Assembly (NCBI GenBank): GCA_038087875.1
Contig: CM075995.1
Coordinates: 8,930,001 to 8,994,000, forward strand
Length of the DNA: 64,000 nucleotides
Direction of reading: 5' to 3'
DNA from: Malacoraja senta
Taxonomy: Eukaryota
Below are positions 4,801-63,598 of the stretch, piece after piece. The notes under the pieces are model-generated. The model did no database searches and was not told where the DNA came from. It worked only from the letters and a program-made list of their open reading frames with translations. The position numbers and the translations under genes were made by a program. Each line of letters starts with the position of its first letter. Within the stretch, counting starts at the first letter, position 1.

Positions 4801-7800
4801 ATAGTGACAGTTAGGAATGACACATAAAACATTAATAATAAAACATTATTGATTAAACATATGAATTAAATAAAATACCAGAGCAAAAGGAGGCTACAGA
4901 TTTTTGGTTATTGAGTAGAGCTACTACTCGTGGAAAAAAGCTGTTTTTATGTCTGGCTGTGGCAGCTTTGACCGTCCGGAGTCGCCTTCCAGAGGGAAGT
5001 GATTCAAAGAGTTTGTGGCCAGGGTGAGAGGGGTCAGAGATGATCTTGCCCGCTCGCTTCCTGGCCCTTGCAGTGTACAGTTCGTCAATGGAGGGAAGGT
5101 TGCAGCCAACAACATTCTCAGCTGATCGGACGATTCGCTGCAGCCTCCGGGTGTCGTGCTTGGTGGCTGAGCCAAACCACACCATGATGGAGAAGGTGAG
5201 GACAGACTCTACGATGGCCGTGTAGAATTGGACCATCATTGCCTGTGGCAGATTGTGCTTCCTCAGCTGCCGTAGGAAGTACATCCTCTGTTGTGCCATT
5301 TTGACTGTGGAGTCGATGGTAGCCCCCCACTTAAGGTCCTTGGAGATGATGGTTCCCAGGAACTTAAAAGACTCCAAAGATGTGACTGTGGTGTTGTTGA
5401 TGGTGAGTGGGGTGAGGGGAGGGGGAGCTCTCCTAAAGTCTACAATCAATTCCACTGTCTTAAGAGCATTGAGCTCTAGGTTGTTGCGATGGCACCAGGA
5501 CTCCAGCTGTGACACTTCCTGTCTGTAGGCAGATCCCTCCCCATCCTGGATCAGTCCAATCAGGGTTGTGTCGTCCGCAAACTTGACAAATAAATGCTAA
5601 CATTGAGTTTGCTTTCTTTACTATCGATTCGACTTGCAGATTAACTGTTTGGGAATCCTGCACCAGCTCCTAAATCCCTTTGCACCTCCGATTTCTGGAT
5701 TCTCTCCCCATTTAGAAAATAGTCTACACCTTTATTCCTACTACCAAAATACATGACTCTGCACTTTGCTACACTATATTCCATCTGCCACCTCTCTGCC
5801 CACTCTCCCAACCTGTCCAAGTCCTTCTGCAGAGTCCCTGCTTTCTCTACACTACCTGCCCCTCCACCTATTTTCTTATCATCCGCAAACTTGGCCACAA
5901 AGCCTTCAATCCCCTCGTCCAAATCAGTAATTCTACTCCGCCATTCAATCATGGCTGATCTATCTTTCCCGCTCAACCCCGTTCTCCTGCCTTCTCCCCA
6001 TAATCTCCGACACCCGTACTAATCAAGAACCTGTCAATCTCCGCCGTGACAATATCCACCGACTTGGTCCCAACTCCACAGCCGTCTGTGGCAATGAATT
6101 CCACAGATTCACCACCCTCCGACTAAAGAAATTCCCCCTCATCTCCTGTCTAAAGGTACGTCCTTTTATTCAGAGGCTGTGCCCTCTGGTCCTGGACTCT
6201 CCCACTGGACAATAACACTGACCATCAGATGCGTAGGAAAGAACTGCAGATGCTGCTTTAAATCGAAAGGTAGACACAAAATGCTGGAGTAATTCAGCAG
6301 GACAGGCAGCGCCTCTAGAGAGAATGAAATGGCGACATTTCGGGTGGAGACCCTGCTTCAGTCTGACCATCAGATACCAGACACAACTGTATCACTGAAC
6401 ATAGAACTGTACAGCACAGGAACAGGCCCTTCGGCCCACAATGTCTGTGAGAATGGAGCAGCTGGGCTTGTACACTCTGGAGTTTAGAAGGACGAGAGGG
6501 GATCTCATTAAAACACATAAGATTCTTAAGGGTTTGGACACGCTAGAAGCAGGAAACATGTTCCCGATGTTGGGGGAGTCCAGAACCAGGGGCCACAGTT
6601 TCAGAATAAGGGGTAAGCCATTTAGAACAGAGACAAGGAAACTTCTTCACACAGAGAGTGGTGAGTCTGTGGAATTCTCTGCCTCAGAGGGCGGTGGAGG
6701 CAGGTTCTCTGGATGCTTTCAAGAGAGAGCTAGATAGGGCTCTTAAAGATAGCGGAGTCAGGGGATATGGGGAGAAGGCAGGAACGGGGTACTGATTGGG
6801 GATGATCAGCCATGATCACATTGAATGGTGATGCTGGCTTGAAGGGCCGAATGGCCTACTCCTGCACCTATTGTCTTTTCAACAGGATGCCTAGACCAAC
6901 CCTTATGTGCCTGCATATGATCCACATCCCTCCATTTCCTCAATCCTGTGCTTGCTGAAGAGCCTCTTAGACGCCACTAATTGTTCCCGCCACCACCGTC
7001 ACTCCTGGCAGCGCGTTCCAGGCACCCGCCAACCCCTAAAAACAGTCCCGCTCATCCCAAAGCCATGTCTCAAGACTTAAACAACAGGGCCCCAAATCGT
7101 AACCACCACCCGTCCGTTCCCTCCACAGATGCTGCCCGACCAGCTGTGATATTCCACCATTTTAACTTTTTTTCTTTACTCAAGTTTGGTTTAAGTTTAT
7201 TTCCGTCTCACACACACACGAAGGGGCAGTGAAAAGCCTTGTTTTGCATGTCATCCAATCAGTTCAATCGTAAATGCAATCGTCAAACTCTAGAATAGGC
7301 AGAGCAAAGGGGAAGATGCAGAGTGCAGCATATAGTTCTCAGCATTAGAAACATAGAAAACAGGTGCAGGAGGCCATTCGGCCCCTCGAGCCACCACCGC
7401 CATTCATTGTGATCATGGCTGGTCGTCCCCAATCAATAACCCGTGCCTGCCTTCTCCCCATATCCCTTGACTCCACTAGCTCCTAGAGCTCTATCTAACT
7501 CTCTTAAATCCATCCAGTGATTTGGCCTCCACTGCCCTCTGTGGCAGGGAATTCCACAAATTCACAACTCTCTGGGTGAAAACGTTTTCTCCTCAGTCTT
7601 AAATGGCTTCCCCTTTATTCTAAGACAGTGGCCCCTGGTTCTGGACTCGCCCCACATTGGGAACATTTATCCTGCATCTAGCCTGTCCAATCCTTTTATA
7701 ATTTTATATGTTTCTATAAGATCCCCCCTCATCCTTCTAAACTCCAGCGAATACAAGCCTAGTCTTTTCAATCTTTCCTCATATGACAGTCCCACCATCC

Positions 7801-56400: not shown

Positions 56401-59400
56401 ACATGTTTTCTGCCTCTAGTGTGTCCAAACCCGTAACAATCTTATATGTTTCAATAAGATCCCCTCTCATCTTTCTAAACTTCAGAGTGTACAAGCCCAG
56501 CTGCTCCATTCTCTCAGCATATGACAGTCCCGCCATCCCGGGAATTAACCTTGTAAACCTACGCTGCACTCCCTCAATAGCAAGAATGTAAATTGTCCCT
56601 AGTGTGTCGGATGGTGCTAGTATATGGGGTGATCGCTGATCGGCACAGACTCGGCGGATGGGCCTGCAGGGCTAGGGCCTGTTTCCACGCTGTATCTCTA
56701 ACCTAAATATAAACTACATTGATTGGAAATTAAACTGTAACGTCCAGGTTCAGGAACAGCTACTTCCCCACAGCCATCAGGCTATTAAACACAACAAATA
56801 AGCTCTGAACTGCAAAATACTATATTATTAGTTGTTATTTACACTATATTTGTTATTTATTGAACTTTTTCTTTTTTTCCTCTTCCCCCGTAATATACAA
56901 TGTTTACATATTCACATATTCTGTTGTGCTGCAGCAAGTAAGAATTTCATTGTCCCGTCCGGGACATATGGCAATAAAACACTCTTGACTCTTGAAATAA
57001 ATTGAGAAAATGCTGGTCACTGTCGACAGCTCAGAAATGACAAAAGGACTGTGACCTTAAACATTAACTCTGTTTCCCTTGCCACAGATGTTGTGATTGG
57101 CAGAGTGTTGTCGACCTTTGGGTGTGTTTGCCTAATGATCAGTAACAAGTTGCAAAACTCTGATAAGGTGTCTGCAGCGTAGAAATAAGGAACTGCCAAT
57201 GCAGTCTGAAGAAGGGTCCCAACCCAAAATGGTATCTATCCAAGTTCTCCAGAGATGCTGCCTGACCCGCTGAGTTACTCCAGCACTCTGTGAAACGTCA
57301 CCGATCCATGTTCTCAAGAAATGCTGCCTGACCCGCTGAGTTACTCCAGCACTCTGTGAAACATCACCGATCCATGTTCTCCAGAAATGCTGCCTGACCC
57401 GCTGAGTTACTCCAGCACTCTGTGAAACGTCACCGACCCATGCTCTCCACAGATGCTGCCTGACCCGCTGAGTTACTCCAGCACTCTGTGAAACGTCACC
57501 GACCCATGTTCTCCACAGATGCTGCCTGACCCGCTGAGTTACTCCAGCACTCTATGAAACGTCACCTATCCATGTTCTCCACAGATGCTACCTGACCTGC
57601 TGAGTTACTCCAGCACTCTGTGAAACGTCACCGACCCATGCTCTCCACAGATGCTGCCTGACCCGCTGAGTTTCTCCAGCATTTTTGTCCACATAATGAT
57701 TCAATTATACTTTGTGACGGTACTATATAGTCAAATGTACCTTGTTACAGTCAAATTCTTTTTGCATACCAAGTATACGGAAGAGTTGCCACAAAAATGA
57801 CTCTTTACGTAATGTGGGTCCCCTCTTTGTCTGTCCCAAAACTCCCCGCCGGTTCTCTCTTTGTTCTCGGTCAGTTCCTCCTTGTTCCTCAGATGGACCA
57901 AGGGGTACAGTCAAATATTTAGTTTTTGCATTCAATCCGGTAAAATCATATTGCAGACTTCACCCAGGCAGCTTACAAAGATCCGCCACATTTGAATGAA
58001 TGAATGAATGAATGAATAAGTTTATTGGCCAAGTATTCACATACAAGGAATTTGCCTTGGTGCTCCGCCCACAAGTAACAGCATGACAGACAGTGACAGT
58101 TAGGAATGACACATAAAACATTAAACATTAATAATAAAACATTGTTGATTAAACGTGTGAATGAAATAAAATACCAGAGCAAAAGGAGGCTACAGATTTT
58201 TGGCTGTTGAGTAGAGCAACTACTCGTGGAAAAAAAGCTGTTTTTATCTCTGGCTGTGGCAGCTTTGGCAAGCCTCCAGGTGTCGTGCTTGGTGGCTGAG
58301 CCAAACCAGACCATGATGGAGAAGGTGAGAACAGACTCTATGATGGCCGTGTAGAATTGGACCATCATTGCCTGTGGCAGATTGTGCTTCCTCAGCTGCC
58401 GCAGGAAGTACATCCTCTGTTGTGCCTTTCTGGTGCGGACTAAGTTGCAAATGGTTAATTGAACGGTGCTATCTCGTCACAGCGGCGAACCAGGTCTGCG
58501 TTTGCTCGACGCCCCCCTCACTTCAATCTCAATGCCCCCCCGAGTTCAATCCTCACCATTGTATAAGACCATGCAGCAGCGGCGTCTCATTACTGGCTCG
58601 TGATTACCGCTTTGCTTGTTTTACTCCAGGTAGCGTGCCTTCGCTCGCGGCCGGCCTGTTGTTTGGGACTGCGGCAGGAATCGGTGCCTATCAGATCACC
58701 CAGAACCCCAAAAACGTCTGGCTGTCACTGGGTGAGTATCCTGGCTTCATTTACAGTCACAGTGTGTCTCACAGCGTGGAAACACGCCCTTCAACCCAAC
58801 CTGCCCTATCTGTCCTATCTACACTTGTCACACCTGCCTGCGTTTGGTCCATATCCCTCCAAACCTGTCCTATCCATGTCCCTGTCCAAATGTTTCTTAA
58901 ACATTGTGATAATCCCAGCCTCAACTACCTCCTTCCATACACCCACCACCTTTGTGTGGAAAAACTTACCCCTCAGATTCCTATTAAATCTTTCCCTCCT
59001 CCCCTTCGATCTATGTCCTCTGATTCTTGATTCACGTATTCTAGGCAAGAGACTGTATTTGCCCGATATATTCCCCTTATGATTTTATACACCTCTATAA
59101 GATGAAAGAATTTCTTTGAAAGGTTGCCAAACATATTAATTCCCCTTTCCATTCCCACACTGACCTTTCTGTCCTGGGCCTCCTCCATTGTCCTTGGTCA
59201 TCTAGCTGGCCCTGACTTGTTCTGGCCTCTCCCCACCTCCAGTTCCCTCCCCTTTACTTTCAGACTGAAGAAGGGTCCCGACCCGAAATGTTACAAAAGA
59301 CTCCCGAATTAATGGGAAGGAAAGTTCGAGAAGGGATATGAGAGTAAGGTCAGGGCCAATCGTGACGGTGTGAGAGGGGAGGTGAATACCGAGGTCAAAG

Positions 59401-61683
59401 TGATCATGTGACCATTCAATGTGATCATGGCTGGTCATCCCCAATCAGTACCCCGTTCCTGCCTTCTCCCCATATCCCCTGACTCCGCTGTCTTTAAGAG
59501 CCCTATCCAGCTCTCTCTTGAAAGCATCCAGAGAACCTGCCTCCACCGCCCTCTGAGGCAGAGAATTCCACACTCACCACTCGCTGTGAGAAAAAGTGTT
59601 TCCTCGTCTCCGTTCTAAATGGCTTACTCCTTATTCGTAAACTGTGGCCCCTGGTTCTGGACTCCCCCAACATCGGGAACATGTGTCCTGCCTCTAGCGT
59701 GTCCAAACCCTTAACAATCTTATATGTCTCAATGAGATTCCCTCTCATCCTTCTACACTCCAGAGTGTACAAGCCCAGCTGCTCCATTCTCTCAGCATAT
59801 GACAGTCCCGCCATCCCGGGAATTAACCTTGTAAACCTACGCTGCACTCCCTCAATAGCAAGAATGTCCTTCCTCAAATTAGGGGACCAAAACTGCACAC
59901 AATACTTCAGGTGTGGTCTCACTAGGGCTCTGTATAACTGCAGAAGGACCTCTTTGCTCCTATGGAGCGGCTGGGCATGTATACTCTGGAGTTTAGAAGG
60001 ATGAGAGGGGATCTTATTGAAACATATAAGATTATTAAGGGTTTGGACACACTAGAGGCAGGAAACATGTTTGCGATGTTGGGGGAGTCCAGAACCAGGG
60101 GCCACAGTTTAAGAATAAGGGGTAAGCCATTTAGAACGGAGACGCGGGAACAACTTTTTCACCCAGAGAGTGGTGAGTCTGTGGAATTCTCGTCCTCAGA
60201 GGCCGGTTCTCTGGATGCTTTAAAGAGAGAGCTAGATAGGGCTCTTAAAAATAGCGGAGTCAGGGGATATGGGAAGAAGGCAGGAACGGGGTACTGATTG
60301 GGGATGATCAGCCATGATCACCTTGAATGGCGGTGCTGGCTCGAAGGCCGAATGGCCTACTCCTGCACCTATTGTCTATTGTCTATTGAGTTACTCCAGC
60401 ACTGTGAAACGTCAACTATCCATGTTCTCCAGAGATGCTGCCTGACCCGCTGAGTTACTCCAGCACTCTGTGTCTATTATTGGAGGTATTTGAATGTTGG
60501 GCGTGCTTTTTCCTTTGTGGTGTTCCTAGGGACAGTTACCTTCATAGTAAACAACGGCAATGAACAACAAATGTTAAATGTACACTTCCTTTTTATTGTG
60601 CCATTCTCTCTGCAGTTAGATATGTGAACAGTTCCTCTTAAAGCAGTGATGTCAACCAAGGCCATGACCCTCAGAGACCTTTATATTGGAACATAGAGCA
60701 ATACAGCAATAAACTAAAATCCACACAGACAACTCATAGGAACAGTAAATTTATATAAAGATGGATGGCGTAGCGGTAGAGTTGCTGCCACACAGTGCCG
60801 GAGACCTGGCTTGCATCCAGACTTTGGCTGCTGTCTGTACGGAGTTTGTACGTTCTCTCCATGACAGTGTGGGCTTTCTCCGGGTTCCGCCCACACTCCA
60901 AAGGCGTACGGGTTTGTACGCACGCATACCCGCACGCACACACACACACACACAACCACCCCCAACAAGAGTAATGGAATGGGGCTCCGGTGAGTTGAAA
61001 GGAAGCTATTCTTCACTTGTCTGCATTTAAAACATGTAAAGCTATAAATATCTGCCTGCATTCATTCTCCTGACCTTGGTGTGTGCTGTAGTCAGCCTTT
61101 GATCAGTAAAGGCCTGACAAGGTAAAGTATATCTTGCTCTACTTCAAGGGCAGCACGGTGGCGCAGCAGGTAGAGTTGCTGCCTCACAGCGTCGGAGACC
61201 CGGGTTCGATTCCGACCACGGATGCTGTCTGTACGGAGTTTGTACCTTCTCCCCGTGACCTGCGTGGGTTTTCTCCGGGTGCTCTGGTTTCCTCCCACAC
61301 TCCAAAGACGTGCAGGTTTGTAGATTAATTGACTTCGGTAAAGAATTACAATTTGTCCCTAGTGTGTGTAGGATAGTGCTAGTGTACGGGGTGATCGCTG
61401 GTCGGCGCGGACTCGGGCCCATGCACCTGTTTCCACGTTGCACCTCTGAACTAAATTATACTTGGTCTGATGAAGTGATATTTGGTCAGTTTAGAACACC
61501 GGTTATATTCTATGGACCTGTGGCATGAATGGGAAACCCTGGAGAAGTTTGGCAAATATCCGCTTGGCTGATCTGTGTGGCTTGTTATTTTCCAGTGGTT
61601 TCAGGAACGCTGACTGGAATAATGGGAATGCGGTTCTACAATTCGAGGAAGTTCATGCCAGCTGGTTTAGTCGCAGGATTAAG
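50338..61683 (+). CDS. TMEM14C: Transmembrane protein 14C (mitochondrial), first three coding exons, 3'-partial
   Basis: Exons 50338-50419, 58630-58731 and 61596-61683 join in frame: [20 protein letters not shown] / [12 protein letters not shown]...NPKNVW / [18 protein letters not shown]. Position next to PAK1IP1 fits known synteny. The last exon was not found in the window. Confidence 0.94.
51590..52405 (+). mobile_element. CR1 LINE 3' fragment
   Basis: ORF 51921..52325 ([10 protein letters not shown]...RTRGH...LWNSLP). Confidence 0.9.
53178..53205 (+). ncRNA. Minimal hammerhead ribozyme motif with perfect 5-bp stem I
   Basis: TCAGT-CTGAAGA-A-GGTTCTCGACCC-GAAA-CG-TC-ACTGA; the motif runs from 53178 to about 53215; one mismatch in stem II. 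Confidence 0.6.
57226..57685 (+). repeat. 66-bp tandem array (about 7 units), same family as 43367-44000
   Basis: GAAAC(G/A)TCACC recurs at 57292, 57358, 57424, 57490, 57556 and 57622. Confidence 0.92.
57993..58433 (-). mobile_element. Rex/Babar-type LINE 3' fragment with internal deletion
   Basis: ORF 57973..58413 ([14 protein letters not shown]...); (CATT)n tail. Confidence 0.8.
58630..58731 (+). CDS. TMEM14C: TMEM14C coding exon 2 ([34 protein letters not shown])
   Basis: 102 nt, ttactccag acceptor, gtgagt donor. Confidence 0.95.
59413..60388. mobile_element. Two CR1 3' fragments joined head-to-head (59413-59961 minus, 59962-60388 plus)
   Basis: ORFs 59503..59922 minus and 59962..60297 plus. 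Further CR1 3' ends lie at about 6448-6875, 12411-12790, 13966-14470, 32466-32912, 40535-41050, 41704-42208, 44250-44778, 46049-46413 and 56077-56588. Confidence 0.88.
61148..61455 (+). mobile_element. tRNA-derived V-SINE (HE1-like), representative full-length copy
   Basis: A box TGGCGCAGCAGG, B box GGTTCGATTCC, V-core GGAGTTTGTACCTTCTCCCCGTGACCTGCGTGGGTTT and a CR1-like tail. Other copies at about 55130-55445 (+), 14826-15145 (-), 10635-10907 (-), 20770-21062 (-), 39255-39540 (-) and 54383-54650 (+). Confidence 0.85.
61596..61683 (+). CDS. TMEM14C: TMEM14C coding exon 3 ([29 protein letters not shown])
   Basis: 88 nt, ttttccag acceptor, gtaaat donor. Confidence 0.95.
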
Positions 61684-62473: not shown

Positions 62474-63598
62474 CTATAAGCGAGTTCGGTATTCCGAAAA
62501 AACGCATGGAATCGTGGGATTTGTCAAAGGTTGTAAGCTATAAGGGTAAATAGATCTCAGCAGGGGGGGGAGACTGGGCGGAGGGGAGACCCGCATGCGC
62601 TGCTGAACTGTCCCCGGTCCCCCCCGCCACTCGAGACGTCTGGACCGACGGGACTCCGGCCCCCAGGCCCAGCGCGGAGAAGCGCCAACCCCAACACCAG
62701 CGGCCCCAGCCCCACAGAACCCACAGCCAGCACCAACTCCAGCCCAATCCCGCTCCAACTCCAGAGGAACCCGCTCCCCGCTGGGCCACTAGGGCGACAA
62801 GTGTCAGTTCGCCCACGGCCTCAGCCACCACCCCAATTACAAGCCGTACCTTGCACACCACCGGCTTCTGCCCCTACAGTACCCGCTGCCACTTCATCCA
62901 CAACCCCGATGAGGAGCGATTGCCCCGGCCTCGTCTGTGCCAGAGCGCCAGCCTGGGCTCAACCTCCTCCGGCCCGGCGCTAGACTGGGCCGCACTGCGG
63001 GCGGCTTTCAGCCCCGACCTGGAGTTGGAGCTGGCCCGGACTCTGGGTTTGGGGCTGTGCAAGGGAGGGGGAGGACGTTGCTGCTGCAGCCAGCACCACC
63101 ATCACCAACAGTACCCGCAGCTCCAGCTGGCGCCCGTCCTGCCCATGGCCGGCAGGAGCCCGCCCGCAGACTCTCCGACCAGGACGACTCCAGCAGCAGC
63201 GGCTCCGAGTCGCCCGTCTTCGAGCAGGGCTGGCGGCTGCCCATCTTCAGCAGGGTCTCGGTGTCAGACTGAGGGGAGGGGGGTGGAGGTGGAGGGCTGC
63301 CGGGACCAACCCGGCGGGACAGGCAGAGCCGAGCTGGAGCCAGCGGCTGCAGGTCCGGGGCCGCACCGCCAGCCCAGGGCCATCCTGTACACCTCCGGAC
63401 AGGGACGGGACACCGGGGAGCGGACGGGGACGTCCCAACAGCAACTCAACAGCACCCGCAGCGACGGAGAGCCAACCCCAACCCGACTACGGACGAAACA
63501 CAAGCCTGCAGCAATGCAGCACCACCGTTGCCAAGTGTTTTATAGCTAGTGACCTATGACCTGGCCATGCGCAGTCGGAATACCGAACTCGCTTATTG
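62474..63598. mobile_element. Non-autonomous TIR DNA transposon carrying a captured ZFP36-like gene fragment
   Basis: Perfect 22-bp inverted repeats at 62476-62497 (ATAAGCGAGTTCGGTATTCCGA) and 63575-63596; degenerate subterminal symmetry (CGCATGG...AGCTATAA); TAC on both flanks (62471-62473, 63599-63601); no transposase. Confidence 0.85.
62750..63272 (+). pseudogene. ZFP36: ZFP36/tristetraprolin-family tandem CCCH zinc-finger pseudogene
   Basis: *GDKCQFAHG (TAG at 62790), HPNYK, frameshift near 62844, RTLHTTGFCPYSTRCHFIHNPDEER, frameshift near 63172, then SDQDDSSSSGSESPVFEQGWRLPIFSRVSVSD* (CNOT1-binding C-terminal motif). The family call is firm; the paralog assignment is less certain. Confidence 0.85.

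Follow-up and report, generated by a model that had tools for sequence, protein, structure and literature searches.

A fragment of ZFP36 exon 2 amplified within a non-autonomous ISL2EU-type transposon family of skates

In the skate Malacoraja senta, the last intron of a gene that we take to be TMEM14C, recognised from its protein sequence, holds a dead copy of a DNA transposon that carries a piece of the host gene ZFP36 (tristetraprolin, TTP) between its terminal inverted repeats (TIRs). This copy lies in the window, the 64,000-nt stretch of DNA analysed here (positions 8930001-8994000 of contig C19 in the 1.94-Gb assembly), and belongs to an unusually large Pack-TIR family built on a coding exon, in a superfamily for which the literature searched holds no earlier report of gene capture; function of the cargo is not evidenced.

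The history that we consider highly probable is as follows. An ISL2EU-type cut-and-paste transposon, with a THAP-HTH-DDE transposase, a YqaJ gene and an A|AT|T target, would have been active in a skate ancestor and would have spawned non-autonomous forms whose arms are GC-rich. During repair of one such form, DNA synthesis would have changed template, at a GCCG microhomology, to exon 2 of the ZFP36/TTP gene of the host, and would have followed it from mid-finger 1 through roughly 190 nt of 3'UTR before going back to the transposon. The resulting chimera, keeping both ends, would have been moved in trans, passing from a long form to a shorter one, then to a subfamily with an 11-bp deletion and finally to one with an additional 18-bp deletion, about 300 copies in total. 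The cargo would be a passenger, and the window copy one insertion among the many. The template switch, the order of the subfamilies and the mobilisation in trans by the transposase are what we infer from the comparisons presented below.

The element, its insertion site and its target

The preliminary description of this DNA, made from the letters of the window, had reported perfect 22-bp inverted repeats, weaker inverted similarity roughly 60 bp inward, and neither a transposase nor a poly(A) tract in between. All of these features were found again: the 22-nt repeat is perfect (62476-62497 and 63575-63596), gapped similarity reaches about 65 nt, and the internal DNA, with a GC content of 0.66, contains no transposase and no A run longer than 6. 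The placement in a TMEM14C intron was also borne out. The two coding exons of the window (Table 1) and a last exon outside it (L080:5693) splice into a single open frame, so that the element sits in the last intron. In the preceding intron, at 59412-60330, two LINE 3' ends face each other as a long inverted pair, with arms of 197 and 132 nt that match at 91-94%.

Table 1. Features of the element and of the surrounding gene (positions of the window)
Feature	Positions	Strand	Remark
Coding exon preceding the penultimate one, presumed TMEM14C	58630-58731	+	
Penultimate coding exon, presumed TMEM14C	61596-61683	+	
Left target-site duplication (TSD), AT	62476-62477	+	Flank at -1 is T here, A in 62/76 family members
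Left TIR, 20 bp, starts AAGCGAG	62478-62497	+	
Left subterminal region and GC-rich arm	62498-62784	+	Common to cargo-free siblings
Captured ZFP36 exon-2 fragment	62785-63294	+	Parent counterpart L103:4959-5551, 79% identity with gaps
Zinc finger 1, second half (GDKCQFAHGLSH)	62793-62828	+	
Zinc finger 2 without first Cys, in a different frame (TLHTTGFCPYSTRCHFIHNPD)	62848-62910	+	
ZFP36 C-terminus with RLPIF motif and native stop	63171-63272	+	
Right arm and subterminal region	63295-63574	+	
Right TIR, 20 bp	63575-63594	-	
Right TSD, AT	63595-63596	+	

The target of the family is A|AT|T and its TSD is AT. Across 44 paired elements, a duplication is seen only in the AT or the TA register (35/44 each), and in a set of 76 paired elements AT stands at both ends of 64, with A at -1 in 62 and T at +1 in 57. 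Paralogous empty sites decide between the two registers. The flanks of each element were joined and aligned to other copies of the repeats that had served as insertion targets, which yielded spanning matches for 13 of the 76 elements, six of them clear, six with ambiguous alignments and one a self match. The six clear sites (L033, L046, L057, L060, L078 and L087) fit the left flank, AT and the right flank with zero length change; since they fit neither ATAT nor the lack of any dinucleotide, a TA duplication and an absent TSD are both rejected. With the terminal AT assigned to the TSD, the TIR proper is 20 bp rather than 22, and the ends of the element are AAGCGAG…CTCGCTT, which corrects the termini given in the preliminary description. 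Its TAC duplication is likewise withdrawn, because the 3-bp register is duplicated in one of 76 elements, the window copy itself, against a chance expectation of about 1.2.

The cargo, its parent gene and the spread of the family

The parent of the cargo is a third ZFP36-type gene, on contig C3041 (locus L103), with a TATA box, a short exon 1, an intron and exon 2. By its best matches, which come from skates, rays and sharks and are ZFP36-like proteins of the ZFP36/TTP type, it is a two-exon ZFP36/TTP orthologue, located on a separate contig from the window. Two 1-bp indels in its C runs, which compensate each other, are seen in the assembly and are probably assembly errors, because both the orthologues and the cargo copies are in frame. 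ZFP36L2 and ZFP36L1 (L081 and L082) were discarded as parents, as they match only over the fingers and the tail, at about 80% over the fingers. In exon 2 of the parent, as in the skate, sawfish and manta orthologues, the finger-2 lead-in reads KYKTEPC and not KYKTELC.

The consensus of the cargo agrees with this skate orthologue at 545 of 557 sites (12 differ). Its start falls at L103:4959 in 51 of 69 distinct copies and its end at 5551 in 48 of 69, while a long form (L086, L098, L100, L114, L119 and the copies on contig C13) extends to L103:5630 in the 3'UTR before the transposon arm resumes, and holds about 80 nt missing from the present-day parent. At the 5' junction, a cargo-free sibling reads ATGG-GCCG-GGGAC, the parent TTCT-GCCG-CTACGG and the cargo copies ATGG-GCCG-CTACGG. 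The cargo goes back to a single capture, at a 4-nt (GCCG) microhomology, in which exon-2 sequence was acquired from the middle of finger 1 up to a point in the 3'UTR.

Hence the element carries a fragment of ZFP36, not the gene that the preliminary description had seen as captured: exon 1, the N-terminal region, the RYKTEL lead-in of finger 1 and the first two Cys of that finger are all missing. As the capture break removed the lead-in and both Cys, the element at no time possessed the whole tandem zinc finger. The two CCCH fingers claimed for the window copy are each broken, the first by the start of the cargo within it and the second by an 11-bp deletion that took its first Cys, and the Pfam matches, which lie in different frames, cover just profile positions 18-26 and 9-27 of 27. 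Of 375 candidates, 150 were scored, and among these ZFP36L1, ZFP36L2 and the parent alone matched the finger-1 query in its first residues. The coding remnant ending in RLPIFSRVSVSD was found as described, with its stop at 63272; its RLPIF motif is presumably the CNOT1-binding one.

Lying within one exon, the cargo fits a DNA and an RNA template alike. A truncated retrocopy of ZFP36 mRNA, or RNA-templated repair, could have placed the fragment in a pre-existing non-autonomous element, with the same later history. The wholly exonic cargo and a genome rich in LINE reverse transcriptases speak for such an origin, and 5' truncation is typical of retrocopies. However, the cargo has neither a poly(A) tract nor a TSD of its own, the signs of a retrocopy named in the preliminary description, and the 5' junction shows microhomology. 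Furthermore, the point at which the long form departs from the parent, L103:5630, is still within the 3'UTR, the parent has no A tract from there up to the contig end, and no poly(A) precedes the return to the transposon arm at the long-form 3' junction. We regard an RNA origin as unlikely, and favour the template switch into the gene itself.

The suspicion that the element belongs to a multicopy family was correct: the 22-mer TIR has 616 exact matches in the genome, and its reversed control 0. A 23-nt cargo motif, at up to 2 mismatches, occurs at 275 places (control 0), one of them the parent and some of them tandem or haplotig duplicates. Given that 15 of the 16 cargo elements picked by their TIRs hold this motif, the count suggests about 300 cargo copies genome-wide. 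Those 16, two of which are one duplicated insertion, come from 40 TIR-picked elements, the other 24 being cargo-free, and the arms are common to both kinds. Cargo-bearing elements have differing flanks on many contigs, and the element has transposed after the capture, into distinct insertion sites. Other TIR pairs, the parent and an autonomous partner had been proposed for search in the preliminary description; cargo-free siblings, the parent and autonomous relatives were all recovered.

The copies form a star-like tree, with a median non-CpG divergence from the consensus of 4.5% (3.9% for the window copy). Of 69 copies, 31 have a gap at the site of the 11-bp frameshift; the 15 with a gap at that of the 18-bp deletion all belong to these 31. 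Both counts are inflated by the choice of 30 loci for their likeness to the window copy. Since frameshifted subfamilies have amplified, frameshifted forms kept transposing.

Contigs of all four related organisms compared hold many cargo-bearing pieces. The window insertion appears to be common to three of the four: in each of these, a contig extends from inside the right TIR, at 63571, to the unique flank and shows 11-13 differences over 430 nt, one of the three having 94 further letters unaligned, and the fourth organism is uninformative. No joint skipping the element, as an orthologous empty TMEM14C site would give, was seen among 15 of 1121 joints in these organisms. At two sites (the Ala in GLAEL and the lack of a Gly-Ser insert before CCC) the cargo is like the Rhinoraja orthologue and unlike the Malacoraja senta or Leucoraja parent, hinting that the capture may be older than the split of those skate lineages; the Ser in DDSS points the opposite way.

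Several members of the family have unusual structures. (i) The cargo-free members L047, L052 and L074 are near-complete palindromes of 750-810 bp. (ii) On contig C13 (40000-200700; L107-L109 and L208-L212), a long-form cargo copy with an insertion recurs in a segmental array of 15-35 kb at 95-97% identity; an rDNA nature of these tandem copies was rejected, with no Rfam match within 50 kb. (iii) L058 and L059 (C1, 79.17 and 80.23 Mb) are one insertion present twice with identical flanks, 1 Mb from each other and in opposite orientation, either an inverted duplication or an assembly duplicate. (iv) In three related organisms and not the fourth, the summed contig depth over window positions 62676-62927 (the arm end and part of the zinc fingers) is 10-100x that of the rest of the cargo, which is possibly a satellite derived from the element.

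Transposase partners and superfamily

Decayed autonomous relatives share the ends of the family. A YqaJ search of the genome gave 32 matches among 38 candidates, and one of these elements, L174, has a YqaJ match (PF09588, with one in-frame stop) between family TIRs 4,695 bp apart, together with a THAP frame on the opposite strand; its DDE core is lost. Its left end is 91% identical to 62476-62531 and its right end 78% identical to 63488-63596. A rearranged copy with the same ends, L165, has a 527-aa frame in which THAP (PF05485), HTH_Tnp_4 (PF13613) and DDE_Tnp_4 (PF13359) all score over the cut-off. In addition, 24 further transposase loci were examined, 15 with a family-type TIR within the stretch covered and six with a TIR pair, and transposase sequence lies inside the same TIRs in L184/L185, L189, L190, L191 and L198. 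The neighbourhoods of unpaired TIRs, also searched for an autonomous partner, gave LINE insertions only.

Based on its target and on these partners, we assign the element to the non-autonomous ISL2EU-type (PHIS) DNA transposons, where the preliminary description, right about a non-autonomous TIR element that had captured ZFP36 sequence and amplified, had left the superfamily unassigned. We write ISL2EU-type rather than ISL2EU because the TIR starts with AA and the transposase was assigned by its domains. The motif AAGCGAG is absent from three supplements of PMC4482050. Membership of another superfamily, be it one with a 3-bp TSD, a TA-duplicating Tc1/mariner or the TSD-less Spy, would draw on the TA register, which does as well as AT on flanks alone, and on termini that are not GG, but it is contradicted by the paralogous empty sites, by the single 3-bp duplication and by same-end partners with THAP-HTH-DDE_Tnp_4 and YqaJ genes; we deem it extremely improbable. 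Kolobok (TTAA target, RR termini, as given in the text of PMC9587614 consulted) was rejected for a target that does not fit.

Two further families were rejected as mobilisers, as neither matches the TIR of the element. The first is a high-copy DDE_Tnp_4 (Harbinger-like) family of 478 aa (L162-L164 and many more), with many open frames of 440-480 aa, suggesting recent activity. The second, L158 and L159 (C341 and C61), is ISL2EU-like, with YqaJ+PHD and HTH+DDE_Tnp_4 frames; in L159 the YqaJ frame lies between the arms of an 18-nt inverted repeat whose outer ends carry AT.

Among the 120 matches listed, the best non-skate relatives of the ISL2EU-type transposase are unnamed marine-invertebrate proteins at no more than 54% identity, which would be compatible with a horizontal entry of the transposon.

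The frame of L165 (L165:3151-4734; C4, about 41.095 Mb) runs for 1,584 nt without stop or frameshift inside a dead, rearranged element, whereas its paralogues accumulate 4.4 frameshifts per kb (about 7 expected over its length) and 0.006 stops per codon (about 3 expected). Full-length counterparts with 97% identity exist in Leucoraja erinacea (LOC129704819) and Amblyraja radiata (LOC116983422), and RefSeq gives four or more isoforms for each. On the other hand, measured from the paralogue consensus its pN/pS is 0.72, where the paralogues have 0.87, a difference that falls short of showing selection. L165 is thus a candidate domesticated ISL2EU transposase, at roughly even odds, and an intact frame in three skate lineages makes the candidate testable. 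In Rhinoraja longicauda, a 'SETDB1-like' protein (P0232) starts with about 270 aa of transposase (THAP region) joined to SETDB1-like sequence, either a real fusion or an annotation error.

Decay of the cargo and comparison with known systems

The window copy is a dead pseudogene fragment. The ATG in the frame of the cargo with which the left arm ends in 46 of 56 copies is CTG here, and the cargo has gained a premature stop and deletions of 18, 11 and 4 bp. Family-wide, the stretch from the junction to the native stop is open in 10 of 56 copies, and the ZFP36 frame is kept throughout only in L121 (1/56). Raw pN/pS of the cargo is 0.62-0.65, which could be mistaken for selection; the mutation spectrum of the arms gives a neutral expectation of 0.77, so that most of the deficit is mutation bias, and the remainder goes with protein-based picking of copies. 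Once corrected for mutation, omega is 0.92 (0.83-1.03) in 35 DNA-picked copies, 0.84 (0.71-1.0) in eight TIR-picked copies and 0.86 (0.75-0.98) in 34 protein-picked copies, a set biased by the picking method; the bootstrap behind these intervals ignores the shared ancestry of the copies. The cargo decays about neutrally.

A cargo functional now or formerly, either as a decoy protein stabilising AU-rich mRNAs or through regulation of ZFP36 by the copies as RNA, is very unlikely in our opinion. The predicted decoy would be a protein of roughly 175 aa opened by the arm ATG, in which finger 1 is broken while finger 2 is whole and the RLPIF motif present. It is favoured by the many copies with an in-frame junction ATG, by omega point estimates of 0.84-0.92 and by the RefSeq annotation of a Leucoraja erinacea copy, from junction ATG to right arm, as a 'ZFP36-like' protein (XP_055493223.1; P0297). 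However, omega is indistinguishable from 1 in the DNA-picked copies, the 82% retention of the ATG matches general decay, frameshifted subfamilies were amplified, most TIR-picked elements (24/40) multiplied without cargo, and no promoter was identified. In addition, XP_055493223.1 quits the ZFP36 frame after finger 2 and enters the transposon arm, and at least this one of the 'ZFP36-like' models annotated in skates is spurious and accounted for by the family. A decoy role of the founder, conceived by analogy with non-binding TTP mutants (PMC3297641, in the part consulted), has no positive support. We likewise give a slim chance to the fuller proposal that the founder was a transposon-borne tristetraprolin decoy (ATG, one intact finger and a deadenylase-recruiting tail) damping AU-rich mRNA decay or ZFP36, that L121-like copies are still expressed and selected, and that the mobilising transposase survives as a domesticated skate gene. 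The statement of the preliminary description that a host mRNA-decay regulator had been mobilised went too far, given an RNA-binding module cut at capture and copies that decay about neutrally; we retain the reading of the cargo as a passenger.

Plants commonly show mass transposition of captured genes, whereas in animals the process has been reported as rare and low-copy. Plant Pack-MULE and Pack-CACTA are non-autonomous elements that amplify GC-rich gene fragments, and so is the skate family, which differs in its superfamily, its fixed 2-bp TSD, its single dominant gene cargo and its vertebrate host.

Pack-MULE are cited as well in the survey of Tan et al. 2021 (PMC8277862), which, in the text consulted, reports 370 young Pack-TIRs from 100 animal genomes, mostly hAT and TcMariner, of which four are multicopy; its main text nowhere contains the words shark, skate, ISL2EU or Harbinger. 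Like the animal Pack-TIRs treated there, including Pack-hAT-N8_XT and Drosophila Ssk-FB4, the skate family has a captured host segment between TIRs, a distant identifiable parent, breakpoint microhomology, a GC-rich cargo and repeated transposition. In contrast to them, its cargo, a fragment of a protein-coding exon, is present in about 275 copies, and the family is older and common to several skate species. Its copy number is about a hundredfold above those of the multicopy cases, of which the illustrated one has three copies, in a survey that was deliberately conservative and covered young cases only. Unlike Ssk-FB4, the skate cargo gives no sign of a selected protein.

With the ISL2EU group of PHIS, as far as the consulted portions of Han et al. 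2015 (PMC4482050) and Han et al. 2014 (PMC4122938) describe it, the skate element shares the AT TSD in A|AT|T (PMC4482050, including Table S2) and short TIRs, and its mobiliser shares a THAP+HTH+DDE_Tnp_4 transposase of about 530 aa, a second, YqaJ-type gene and invertebrate relatives. It departs from the group in a TIR starting with AA in place of the usual GG, a start that is a tendency and not a criterion (PMC4482050). The literature searched, these portions included, contains no report of gene capture by ISL2EU, and, with PMC9587614, PMC10045372 and PMC4122938 also covered in part, no description of the skate ZFP36-carrying family, which Repbase or Dfam may list as an unnamed repeat.

The findings presented here document, for a vertebrate and for ISL2EU, a gene capture whose product transposed to hundreds of copies. 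The parent, the junction, the cargo-free siblings, the mobiliser and the nested subfamilies are all identified in this case, and its insertions provide presence/absence markers for skate phylogeny. According to the part of PMC9179366 consulted, ISL2EU occurs in teleosts and is absent from elephant shark, gar and coelacanth; against that distribution skates are a new host group, and the range of ISL2EU is extended to cartilaginous fish.
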